A stretch of DNA of 64,000 bases from an uncultured Verrucomicrobiae bacterium (GCA_937775205.1 CALKBX010000014.1:1054-65053), one strand, 5' to 3'. Positions 54,580-57,920 are shown, counted from the first letter of the stretch. Notes: generated from the letters alone by a model not told the origin. Program-made: numbers and translations.

Positions 54580-55300
54580 TCAGGATAATAATTTTTCATC
54601 CTGAACATCGTGCGCATCCGTATTTTTTCCATAATAAATTTCCGCCAATCGCTGTGGTGATGCGCCGAGCCAGTAGCGGACGATGACAGCGGGTCATTAG
54701 CCAGTGGGTTTTGAGCGTGCCGTATTTGCGGAATTTGCGGGCGGAGGTGAGCACTGTGGCGGGCGCTAGTGCGAGGCGACCATGGGCGGCGAGGGTTTTG
54801 CAGAGTTCGAATTCTTCCATCAGCGGCACGTCGGGCACGCCGCCGCATTGCTCGAGCACATCGCGTTTCACGAAAATGGCTTGGTCGCCGAAGAGGCGGT
54901 TGGCGAGTGCCCACAGAAGCCAACAACGCAAACGCGAACCTGGCAACGCGCCGCCATCGCGAAAGCGTTTGTAAAAACCACCGGCAACCACCAGCGGTCG
55001 GGCGAGGGTTTCCGCAATGACCGCGCCCGCATTCTCCGGCAGCCAAGTGTCCGCGTGTAAAAAAAGAATAACGTCGCCGGAAGCCTGCTGCGCGCCGAGG
55101 CGAAGTTGCTTGCCGCGACTGGGTTCGCTTTCGAGGACGGTGCAGTTGTGTTCGCGTGCGATGGCTTTTGTGTCGTCTGTACTGCCGGCATCGACAACGA
55201 TGATTTCCTTCACCTCGGGAATGGCCCGCGCGCGCTTGAGCGTCTCAGGCAATTCGCTTGCCTCATTGAGCGTGGGGATGATGACCGACAGGGCCGGCAT
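54580..55300 (-). CDS. GT2 glycosyltransferase of the TIGR04283-like (rSAM-associated transferase 2) type; frameshift near 54688
   Basis: SVIIPTLNE, LFLHADT, GDQAIF, PLMEE, TSARK. Removing one base restores the tail YWLGASPQRLAEIY. Confidence 0.82.
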
Positions 55301-55303
55301 GGC

Positions 55304-56513
55304 CTAGTCGTCCTTCAAATTTTCGTACGCGCCGAAGTCGCTGAAGAAGTGTTTTTTGGCGAATTTGTAGATCCAGTTTTTTTCGGGGACTTGCTCGGTG
55401 CGGTTCCATTGGCTGGGGCGATTTTGCATGGCTTCGAGTTCGGGAAGGGCGGTTTTGCGGGCAGTGCCGTCGGGGGCGTCGTGTTTTTCGACGAACTCTT
55501 TCACCTTATCGGGGCGCTCGAGCATGATGCAGCCGCGCGTGGTTTCGCTGCTCATCTTTGCTGAAATCTTTTAGGTATTCGCTTTGCACGAAGACGTCAC
55601 GGATATGGCGGTCGTCGTTAATATTTTCCTTGGCGAATTGAATGATTGGACACGGCTCAATGGCGCCCCAAGGGCTGATGTGATGGCTGATGCCGGTGGC
55701 GGCGGGGCATAGCGCCTGTCCGTCGTCCATATAATAGGCGTCGATGAGCGCGAGCGGTTTTTCGCAACGCATGTTGACGACGAACTTGCGGATCTTGACT
55801 TGCTGCTCGGGCGTGAGGCAAAGCTGCTCGTTGGGCTCGGGGCCGACGGGGCGGTAGGTGTGATACCACGCGTACATCACGCCGAGGTCGATGAGCTTGT
55901 CGAGCCAACGTTCCTGCAGAAGGTCGTCGATGTTGTTTTGGCAAAGGCTCGTGGCCACGCCGGTGAGCAGTTTGTTTTCCACGCAGTTCAGAACGCCCTG
56001 CATGCTCTTGCTGTAAACATCCGCCTTGCCGCGCCGCTCGTCGCTGACCAGCTCGGTGCCCTCGATGGAAATGAGCGGGGTGACATTGCCCATCGCGCGC
56101 ATTTTTTTCGCCACCTCATCGGTGATGAACTGCCCATTGGTGAAAATCTGAAAATAACAATCGGGATGTTCCGCCAAAATATCGAGCAGTCCCTTGTACA
56201 TAAACGGCTCGCCGCCGAGGATGCCGAAGAAACTATTGCCCGCCTCGCTAGCCTCGCGGATGAGCCGGTGCAGTTGCTCCGCCTCAATCTTTTCCTGCTT
56301 CGCCGCGACGTCCACCCAGCAGCCTTGGCAGCGGAGGTTGCAGGAATTGAGCACGGATATGTAAAGGAACGGCGGAAAGTACTCGCCCTTTTTCAGCCCC
56401 TTTTTAAACCGCTGCACACTCCGCATCCCGCGCCAGCCGAAGTTGTAGGCAAACTTCCAGAGCAGACGCTTATCTGTCTCGAGCAAAACCCGTTTGGCCA
56501 TTCGGAGGTACAT
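55304..56513 (-). CDS. Radical SAM protein with SPASM/twitch-like C-terminus; frameshift near 55560
   Basis: CNLRCQGC, GGEP, FTNG, CPAA...EPCP; C-terminal piece GCIMLERPD lies in a second frame. Confidence 0.85.
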
Positions 56514-56532
56514 GCGCGGATTATCGTTCGCG

Positions 56533-56608
56533 AACGACCAATGATCAATGATCCAATGTCCAAGGGAATGGAGGGACGAGGGAGGGGGTGATTTGCGAAT
56601 TGCGAAAT
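56533..56608. repeat. Half copy of the heptamer repeat
   Basis: AACGACC-AATGATC-AATGATCC-AATGTCC, GAGGGAC/GAGGGAG and TTGCGAA x2. Confidence 0.55.
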
Positions 56609-56643
56609 TAAAGGAAAACGGACGGATGAAGGCCTCCATAGGG

Positions 56644-56856
56644 CTAGAACGGTTTGCCCGCGAGGTTGGCGAATAGTTCGTCGCGGCGGGTGCGGGCTTC
56701 ATCCACATCGTGCGTGCCGAGGCTTTTGCGGACGCGGCGTTTGGTGAAGTCGGCCATGTGCAGCGTGTAGTGCAGCCACCAGGTTCCGTGGTTGTTCCAC
56801 AGATGGTGGTCCGGATTCTTTCGGTTTACTCTTACTGACAGGGTTGGTGCTCTCAT
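56644..56856 (-). CDS. 70-aa basic protein resembling a standalone integrase arm-binding (beta3-alpha) domain
   Basis: NPDHHLWNNHGTWWLHYT...RRVRKSLGTHDVDEARTRRD. Confidence 0.75.
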   Translation of the reverse strand: MRAPTLSVRVNRKNPDHHLWNNHGTWWLHYTLHMADFTKRRVRKSLGTHDVDEARTRRDELFANLAGKPF

Positions 56857-56888
56857 TGTGCGCTTTCTCTAAAACGCTTCAGGTTCCG

Positions 56889-57051
56889 GAAATAAAAACG
56901 CCGCTTATGCAATGCAACATCGGCGGATCATTTCCCTGGAGTTTGTTGTTTAGGGCTGATGCCCCACACATCGGCAGATGACACAGTCACCTCCAAGGCC
57001 CTTGCTTGCTGCCGGTTGCCAGACTTATTTCAGGGCTCATTTCTGATGCGC
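56889..57051 (-). ncRNA. Structured cis-regulatory leader with terminator (riboswitch candidate)
   Basis: P1 CGCAUC/GAUGUG closes a multistem domain; terminator CGCCG...CGGCG-UUUUUAUUU ends ~33 nt before the ATG. Confidence 0.6.
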
Positions 57052-57287
57052 GGGGAGAAAAGCATAACTCCGCTAAAGCGAGGCAAGGATTTTTTCATCG
57101 GTCGTTTTCAGCTTAAAATCGCGCTTACATGTGCGAGATGCAGAAAGCAACCAGGAGCGTGACTCCGCCTATGCAGGCGAGAAACACTTTGTCGATTTTT
57201 GAAAGTTCAATCTTCATACCCTGTCAGACGGGAAACGATCGGCCATGTTACTGTTTGTTTTCGGGCTGGCTCATGGCATAAACGGGC

Positions 57288-57920
57288 ATGGCGAAAACTA
57301 CCCAAAAGTATTTCCTGCTCATAACCTGCCTCACGGCCTAAGTGGATTGGCGGGAGCAGGCGAGGCGGTGAAGTTGTTTGATGGCAAGACGTTTGCCGGT
57401 TGGGAGGGGAACCGAGCAATCTTTTCGCATTGAGCAGGGTGCGGTGGTTGGAGGCAGCCTAAAGGAAAAGGTTCCCCGCAATGAATTTCTTTGCACGAAA
57501 AAGACGTACAAAAATTTCATCCTCACGCTGGAGGTAAAGCTGCTGGGCGGGCCCAAGGCGAATGCGGGGATTCAGATTCGCACGAAACGCATTCCGAACC
57601 ATCACGAAGTGAGCGGCTACCAAGCCGACATGGGCGTGGGCTGGTGGGGGAGTTTGTACGATGAATCGCGCCGGAACAAAGTGCTGGCGCGAGCGGATGC
57701 GGCGGTCATCCAAAAGGCGCTGAAGCCCGATGACTGGAACCAATACAAAATCCATTGTGAAGGCCGGCGCATTCGATTGTATCTTAACGGGCAGTTGACG
57801 GTGGACTACACCGAGCCGGATCCAAAGATTCCTGAGGAAGGCGTGATTGCCCTGCAGATCCATGGCGGTCCCCCGAGCGAGGCTTGGTATCGGGAGATTA
57901 CCCTCATGGAATTGCCCTAA
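57288..57920 (+). CDS. DUF1080 (3-keto-disaccharide hydrolase family) protein, two frameshifts near the 5' end
   Basis: LFDGKTFAGWEG, NAGIQIR, GYQADMG, GSLYDE, WNQY, GVIALQIH. Confidence 0.85.

Follow-up and report, generated by a model that had tools for sequence, protein, structure and literature searches.

The locus

The subject of this analysis is a leader RNA and the small gene behind it in a 64,000 nt stretch of DNA (the window) from an uncultured Verrucomicrobiae bacterium (GCA_937775205.1 CALKBX010000014.1:1054-65053). On the minus strand, an open reading frame (ORF) for a stand-alone mini-protein of 70 aa, similar to the arm-type DNA-binding domains of integrases, is preceded by a structured leader and followed by genes for a radical SAM (S-adenosylmethionine) enzyme and a GT2 glycosyltransferase (Table 1). 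An earlier note, made from the sequence alone, described the leader as a non-canonical, riboswitch-like element, and proposed that it was either a variant or new riboswitch or part of a protein-RNA autoregulatory module. We find that it is a decayed copy of a known class, the SAM-I/IV riboswitch (RF01725), and not a new class. Hence, the apparent novelty of the RNA is removed and the 'non-canonical' leader is a broken SAM-I/IV riboswitch.

The sequence of the leader on the minus strand reads as previously quoted, including the GGGGC/GCCCU hairpin, the linker and the terminator, and GCAUCAG, GCCGAUGU and GAAAUGA each occur twice in it. Between the end of the terminator, at 56890, and the ATG at 56856 lie 33 nt. 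The 244 nt window leader folds at -80.8 kcal/mol (z -2.33), and 2 of 200 shuffled sequences folded as well. A simple terminator scan did not report the CCGCCG...CGGCG stem, because its loop is larger than the limit of the scan. The mini-protein locus is present in one copy in its genome.

Assignment of the leader to the SAM-I/IV class

At the Rfam gathering level the whole window contains one tRNA and nothing else, and a search of positions 56400-57500 found no match to RF01725 even at E≤10. In E-value mode, the only Rfam families reported on the window leader were snoU13 (E 3.8) and PhrS (E 1.7), both chance matches, and the sole match to RF01725 in the whole genome at E≤10 is another copy, on contig C5. 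The regions upstream of mini-protein orthologues align with the window leader and are syntenic with it, and RF01725 (gathering score 41.1 bits) was found there in 11 of 15 loci at E≤1, eight of them at or above the gathering score. Among 31 related genomes, 10 have a match at E≤0.01 and eight reach the cut-off, and in most genomes of the genus that includes the window the single match lies ahead of the mini-protein gene. At the phylum level, the gathering score was reached in only 2 of 20 loci. The Rfam search that the earlier note had suggested thus gives a split answer, with no match in the window itself and a known family in the orthologous leaders, and the Rfam model misses both the window leader and many intact verrucomicrobial members.

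A covariance model (R1) was built from 14 leaders, with the window and its nearest relative excluded. Eleven of the 14 are from loci with RF01725 at E≤1 (eight at or above the gathering score), and L030, at 51.6 bits, was included with them. The window copy (56934-57053, minus strand) matches R1 over the full model length (positions 1-129) with 61.4 bits and an E-value of 5.8e-13, and intact copies from the same genus, which are themselves training sequences, score 110-131 bits. Though the window copy does not reach the gathering threshold of RF01725, R1 supports shared descent with the RF01725 leaders.

When 38 distinct leaders were aligned to R1, 23 of 34 base pairs had changed on both sides, and 90.1 % of the paired cells could pair compared with 72.8 % in shuffled alignments, none of 500 shuffles reaching the observed value; pairing fell to 34-44 % when the partners were slid. 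The conservation and covariation upstream of homologues that had been anticipated are therefore present. All six pairs of helix 5 (P4) show changes on both sides. P2 is plain and covaries in the relatives, whereas its pairs are mostly broken in the window. The pseudoknot PK-2 also covaries, GGAG/CUCC being replaced by GAAG/CUUC in L014 and L025, and in 58 of 65 distinct leaders a run of four or more nucleotides in the P3 loop is complementary to the tail; no such complement was found in the window copy.

The intact relatives consist of P1, an undivided P2, P3 with a CAACC/GGUGC internal loop, P4, a 3' hairpin and PK-2. This matches the SAM-I/IV architecture as set out in PMC2864571 and PMC6890682; a P2 without kink-turn is a hallmark of the class (PMC2864571). 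The clan cues recognized in the earlier note are thereby borne out. The metK gene of one related genome (G042) is preceded by the same riboswitch type, which fits SAM as the ligand.

Decay of the sensor

The AAGAG of J1/2, the kink-turn P2 and the U of GG-U-GCC had been recorded as missing, and all three are indeed absent from the window copy. The J1/2 G is found in 37 of the 38 distinct rows of alignment A4, the window being the exception, and in 29 of the 33 rows of alignment A5, where only the window and L072/L067 alleles have an A. Likewise, 37 of 38 distinct A4 rows contain the bulged U of GGUGCC, and the window alone has a gap there. One extra A and two G-to-A changes unpair most of P2 in the window, and the AUC/GAU of P1 and the CAAC of P3 are retained. 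In SAM-I, residues 6-8, 11-12, 44-47, 57-59 and 87 lie within 5 Å of SAM (PMC6890682), and via the Rfam consensus alignment the two altered pocket positions of the window would correspond to residues 11 and 57.

Intact leaders are found in the same genus (L005-L009, L063-L066 and L071) together with four different decayed alleles, represented by the window, L072/L067-69, L004/L062 and L116. The L072/L067-69 allele also has the J1/2 A, the P2 AAGUC and the P5 changes of the window, and has lost a different segment, lying between two GGUG repeats. One copy of a GGCAAC repeat is deleted in the L004/L062 allele, and L116 combines the two types of deletion. That close relatives have different deletions, without compensation, indicates loss of constraint rather than a conserved variant pocket. 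Similarly, the missing U, the J1/2 change and the short P3 are lineage-specific and differ between close alleles, which points to decay and not to a conserved new core. As the orthologous leaders are ordinary members of RF01725, the proposal of a variant or new riboswitch class is not supported.

A functional variant with a core altered for another ligand, such as S-adenosylhomocysteine (SAH) or another adenosyl compound, appears improbable. Retention of P1, P4, the 3' hairpin, the terminator and the start hairpin, together with purifying selection on the ORF, is what such a variant would lead one to expect, and variant subgroups with altered specificity are known in other riboswitch classes (PMC6847200). 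However, the core is not conserved, each of the four close alleles having different P3 deletions, and P2 and the pseudoknot have been lost without compensation. The first anti-P1 box (see below) is also eroded in the window, where P1, P4, the 3' hairpin, the terminator and the ORF remain. Most likely, therefore, the window copy is no longer SAM-responsive and acts as a fixed leader, the altered core suggesting that ligand binding has been lost.

An unlikely reading, though a more serious one than a functional variant, is that the population was mixed and errors of assembly or consensus account for some of the P3 lesions, the true allele being L072-like. Four public runs from four studies were examined as contigs, and the exact P3 allele of the window was not recovered in these; all contigs over 56990-57015 depart from the window in an identical set of indels and yield the L072-like allele on reconstruction. 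The four small P3 indels could, to that extent, be partly assembly error. No run contained half of the sampled words, and the best DNA run had only 0.44 of them. Against this, only four runs were involved, contigs drop rare variants, and the neighbouring genes of the window are intact. Moreover, the L072-like allele that would replace the P3 sequence of the window is itself decayed, and as both have the G-to-A change in J1/2, AAGUC in P2 and an altered P5, the decay is real in either case. Contigs from an RNA library span the L072-like leader and ORF, and show neither the transcript nor its ends. In a decayed-leader allele (L072:1501-1935) the mini-protein ORF extends to 144 aa, the usual stop near the C-terminus having been lost.

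Table 1. Features of the leader, the mini-protein gene and the genes that follow it, in window coordinates, and upstream regions of metK in genomes of the family
Feature	Position	Strand	Basis
SAM-I/IV-type aptamer remnant (P1, damaged P2, shortened P3, P4, 3' hairpin, A-rich tail)	56934..57053	minus	R1, 61.4 bits
P1 5' strand, GCGCAUC	57045..57051	minus	Aligns with invariant CAUC of 38 distinct leaders
J1/2, AGAAA, with A at 57042 in place of near-invariant G	57040..57044	minus	Alignments A4 and A5
P2 remnant with extra A; 3' strand AAGUC versus GGGUC, most pairs gone	57022..57038	minus	cmsearch non-pairs
P3 remnant, GGCAACCGGCAGCAAGCAAGGGCC; 5' strand and loop shortened, loop GGAG gone, bulged U of GGUGCC absent	56997..57020	minus	Alignments
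P4, intact internal hairpin between P3 and P1 3' strand (SAM-I and SAM-I/IV naming)	56973..56994	minus	Fold
P1 3' strand, GAUGUGU	56966..56972	minus	GAUG columns invariant
3' hairpin, GGGGC-AUCA-GCCCU (P5 in SAM-IV numbering), followed by A/C-rich linker	56952..56965	minus	Fold; helix 6 covaries
CUCC, PK-2 3' strand, without partner in window copy	56938..56941	minus	Complement search
Intrinsic terminator, CCGCCG...CGGCG and UUUUUAUUU; 5' arm with GAUGU	56890..56926	minus	Folds
Hairpin abutting start codon; 5' arm CCUGAAGCG is second near-complement of P1 5' strand	56858..56883	minus	Covaries in alignment A1
Stand-alone mini-protein, 70 aa, similar to arm-type DNA-binding domains	56644..56856	minus	
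Radical SAM enzyme, no named subfamily	55506..56513	minus	Pfam PF04055, 1e-13
ORF of 83 aa, no known family, conserved, travels with radical SAM gene	55304..55555	minus	
GT2 glycosyltransferase	54596..55300	minus	PF00535, 1.4e-22; NCBIfam TIGR04283
metK upstream regions with conserved repeat	L122:1510-1597 and L123-L145		

Expression platform

In each leader that was folded, the 3' hairpin is followed by a long terminator, which has a U run, and by a hairpin abutting the start codon. Two boxes are complementary to the P1 5' strand, GCAUCAG(G): a CUGAUGC box in the terminator and, in the start hairpin, a CCUGAUGCG box. The suggestion that downstream sequences compete for this strand is thus upheld, by the CUGAUGC boxes and by the near-complement in the start hairpin. 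An exact CTGATG lies downstream in 45 of 66 distinct leaders and occurs twice in 19 (shuffle mean 1.7, maximum 7). The duplexes of the P1 5' strand with the two boxes have energies of -10.6 to -19.1 kcal/mol in intact leaders, and P1 itself has -6.2 to -15.3 kcal/mol. In the window the corresponding duplex values are -8.0 and -11.2 kcal/mol, the weaker being that of the terminator box, which has GAUGU where relatives have CUGAUGC.

From these complementarities we infer that the SAM-I/IV riboswitch from which the leader descends would act as a transcription-terminating OFF switch. In the absence of SAM, the P1 5' strand would pair with the CUGAUGC boxes, so that the terminator is blocked and the start region is open; with SAM bound, P1 and the pseudoknot would lock, the terminator would form and the start hairpin would close. 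The gene controlled would be a conserved and usually monocistronic one for a protein of about 68 aa with a putative integrase-arm-type DNA-binding fold. In the window lineage the sensor appears to have decayed, with two near-SAM positions changed, P2 mostly unpaired, P3 short and the partner of the pseudoknot gone, and the remaining leader may allow either leaky termination or read-through, which the sequence cannot tell apart.

The mini-protein

Stand-alone orthologues of the mini-protein were found in 25 of 61 related genomes, and in a phylum sample in 69 of 401 genomes, some with up to six copies. The only match in a further genome (E 0.003) was dropped because it lies inside an unrelated 568-aa ORF. 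The orthologues are 62-122 aa long, and with a profile of 30 family members 992 cluster representatives were matched at E≤0.001, of which 739 remain at E≤1e-10. Among the 992, the best 150 are all 66-230 aa long and have no catalytic domain. Relatives are annotated at source only as 'hypothetical protein' and are from Verrucomicrobiota. A NPDHHLWNNHGTWW-H-T motif, rich in Trp and His, is almost invariant in the family. The ratio of non-synonymous to synonymous substitution rates (dN/dS) is 0.11-0.40 against orthologues from the same genus, which indicates that the ORF is under purifying selection.

The AlphaFold model (mean predicted local distance difference test score, pLDDT, 81) has strands at residues 19-22, 25-33 and 39-45 and a helix at 51-67. 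An exhaustive structural aligner matched it to the arm-binding domain of the HPI integrase (3jtz_A; Z 4.8, root-mean-square deviation 2.2 Å, 50 residues, 26 % identity), and the N-domain of lambda Int (Z 4.5 and 4.1) was among the top rows. Among named ESM Atlas clusters, those nearest to the mini-protein (0.92-0.93) all represent N-terminal or arm domains of integrases, and at E≤0.01 DUF6538 was matched by 17 and Arm-DNA-bind_3 by four of 30 family members. The 70-aa ORF is not the N-terminal part of a tyrosine recombinase. The three-strand and helix model and the short homologues agree with the original description of an arm-binding-like protein without a catalytic domain, and are consistent with a stand-alone arm-type DNA-binding domain, which would predict that the mini-protein binds DNA.

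A number of results tell against a relationship to arm domains. The structural matches are weak, with Z<5, and are tied with unrelated PH and PX domains. The Foldseek comparison that had been proposed returned nothing at E≤0.001 versus the PDB, and a profile search of PDB sequences with the mini-protein family found nothing at E≤10. In Pfam, the mini-protein itself falls below the gathering level for both DUF6538 (22 bits versus 27) and Arm-DNA-bind_3 (15.7 versus 27). There was also no match to the mini-protein in PADLOC or PHROGs.

Association of the riboswitch with mini-protein genes

Of 110 mini-protein loci, 71 have an R1 riboswitch upstream of the gene: 15 of the 25 found in relatives, 23 of the 29 in the phylum sample and 33 of the 55 that metagenome contigs added. 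One more locus lacks upstream sequence. Conversely, 15 of the 21 matches to R1 in the 61 related genomes lie before a mini-protein gene, and the six others precede metK, the gene for a von Willebrand factor A (vWA) protein and genes for four proteins without a known family. In two contigs (L089:1301-2117 and L092:323-1220), riboswitch and mini-protein are followed in tandem by a second riboswitch and a mini-protein paralogue. The next gene is convergent in several loci, and the unit of riboswitch and mini-protein is hence monocistronic there. In three phylum genomes (L039, L040 and L041) a few hundred bases at most separate the mini-protein gene from a tRNA gene, as is typical of integrase genes.

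The co-occurrence of leader and protein is also the only support for an autoregulatory module in which the mini-protein would bind its own leader, other than some RNA- and single-stranded DNA-binding proteins in the fold search, whose scores were insignificant. We found nothing further in favour of this proposal of the earlier note, and regard it as very improbable, given that the leader is fully explained as a SAM-I/IV riboswitch with its expression platform, that the same type of leader precedes the unrelated genes listed above, and that it is missing from 39 of 110 mini-protein loci.

In the window, the genes 3' of the 70-aa ORF on the same strand are, in order, the radical SAM gene, the 83-aa ORF, the GT2 gene and a Dus gene; the radical SAM (PF04055) and GT2 (PF00535) genes reported earlier are thus both present. 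The radical SAM gene is the commonest downstream neighbour, found in 30 of the 110 loci, 16 of which lack the riboswitch. The clustering of downstream neighbours was noisy due to spurious ORFs in high-GC DNA, and a check with tblastn was limited to the radical SAM cluster. The frequency of this neighbour and the conserved Trp/His-rich motif would suit a mini-protein that is a precursor peptide or partner of the radical SAM enzyme, with SAM control reflecting that pathway. This too we consider highly unlikely, as the radical SAM gene is absent from 80 of the 110 loci and the next gene is convergent in several, the mini-protein is predicted to be folded (pLDDT 81), and more than half of the loci with a radical SAM gene, the 16 of 30 above, are without the riboswitch. 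The radical SAM and GT2 genes are variable neighbours of the mini-protein gene, not its constant partner.

The radical SAM enzyme reached the cut-off of no NCBIfam model, and in the scan with PADLOC and PHROGs showed only a generic similarity to the viperin model. The GT2 gene scores 209.5 bits (cut-off 182) with TIGR04283, the NCBIfam model for an arsenosugar-biosynthesis glycosyltransferase. The radical SAM gene overlaps at its 3' end with the 83-aa ORF, which shares 87-98 % identity with ORFs alongside that gene in eight other loci; no family was found for it in Pfam, NCBIfam, PADLOC or PHROGs, and it may be a partner or substrate of the radical SAM enzyme.

The genome that includes the window has a second, intact SAM-I/IV copy (L030/L031, contig C5 of G000 at approximately 229900-234600), which scores 51.6 bits in Rfam and has the same terminator and start hairpin. 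Behind it are genes for proteins of 263 and 192 aa that belong to no known family and have no match in PADLOC or PHROGs. This copy lies about 3 kb from a tRNA gene with a tyrosine-integrase gene beyond it, and a vWA gene is nearby; the region looks like an island. At L014, a homologue of the 192-aa protein follows the mini-protein gene.

No riboswitch was found at the metK of the genome that includes the window. That gene is divergently paired with a gene encoding an ArsR-type helix-turn-helix (HTH) and a methyltransferase domain, an architecture that we take to be SahR-type. The short intergenic region that they share contains a strongly conserved TTGACG ... ATCCGGATACGTCAAT (a TTGACG...CGTCAA repeat) in 23 genomes of the family, which is probably the promoter and operator of the methionine cycle. 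This riboswitch-free metK beside a SahR-like gene and repeat weakens the suggestion that the methionine regulon has the mini-protein as its transcription factor.

Taken together, we consider it likely that the leader in the window descends from a SAM-I/IV OFF switch and that the sensor in this lineage, before an arm-like mini-protein, is decayed and probably SAM-blind. Several points weigh against this interpretation. The minimum-energy fold of the window leader is P1 plus terminator, which would silence a gene that appears to be under purifying selection, and an unusual residual or altered ligand response of the window leader is conceivable. Alignments A4 and A5 were fitted to the model and are biased toward structure. 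In addition, 39 of 110 mini-protein loci are without the R1 riboswitch, and in genus g41, which has small genomes and is counted among the riboswitch-free cases, the mini-protein is present in 28 of 28 sampled genomes. Neither the R1 riboswitch nor any Rfam family was found upstream in the two g41 loci examined (L060 and L061), and an Rfam search of 15 riboswitch-free mini-protein loci detected no other riboswitch, only tRNAs in two of them.

Comparison with known systems

The orthologous leaders share the full architecture, including PK-2, of SAM-I/IV (RF01725, 'SAM-I-IV-variant'; Weinberg et al. 2010), whereas the window copy is without the bulged U, the J1/2 G, most of P2 and PK-2 and fails the Rfam model. 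They also differ in their main target, which here is a DNA-binding-like mini-protein and not a methionine or SAM gene. With SAM-I (RF00162) the nucleotides of the ligand pocket and the position of P4 are common to both, but the leaders described here lack the kink-turn P2 and PK-1 and have the 3' hairpin and PK-2 in addition. SAM-I riboswitches use the same terminator/antiterminator OFF logic as that proposed above; here, in contrast, the competing strand complements the P1 5' strand and occurs twice. The predicted fold of the mini-protein, three antiparallel strands and a helix, resembles that of the arm domains of tyrosine integrases (3jtz, lambda Int, Arm-DNA-bind_3 and DUF6538), although the mini-protein is a stand-alone protein of about 68 aa with its own conserved NPDHHLWNNHGTWW motif and scores under the family cut-offs.

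In Desulfovibrio vulgaris, a SAM-I riboswitch/small RNA is reported to act on the regulator SahR (bioRxiv 10.1101/803072), an earlier case in which a SAM riboswitch is linked with a DNA-binding regulator rather than with an enzyme. That RNA acts in trans on a known methionine regulator, whereas the leaders described here lie in cis before an uncharacterised mini-protein. We found no publication on the association of SAM-I/IV with the mini-protein or on the decay described here, the gene contexts in the supplement of PMC2864571 lying outside the search.

Implications

The gene association and the ongoing decay are moderately interesting, while the RNA itself is ordinary. What is unusual is the target, a well-understood SAM sensor being joined, across many genera, to a tiny integrase-arm-like protein, and the link offers a concrete way into an uncharacterised family that comprises 739 clusters. 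The independent decay alleles within one genus form a natural series for the loss of a riboswitch with terminators persisting.

Tentatively, many Verrucomicrobiota may use the SAM-I/IV riboswitch mainly to make an arm-type DNA-binding protein and some island-type genes SAM-responsive, rather than mainly methionine or SAM enzymes, and the marine lineage of the window may be losing the sensor by repeated, independent deletions mediated by short repeats. We hold this broader proposal to be possible rather than probable. If it is true, there would be a cascade from riboswitch to DNA-binding protein in these bacteria, perhaps tied to mobile elements or to the sensing of SAM depletion, and the marine lineage that includes the window would represent riboswitch pseudogenisation in progress.

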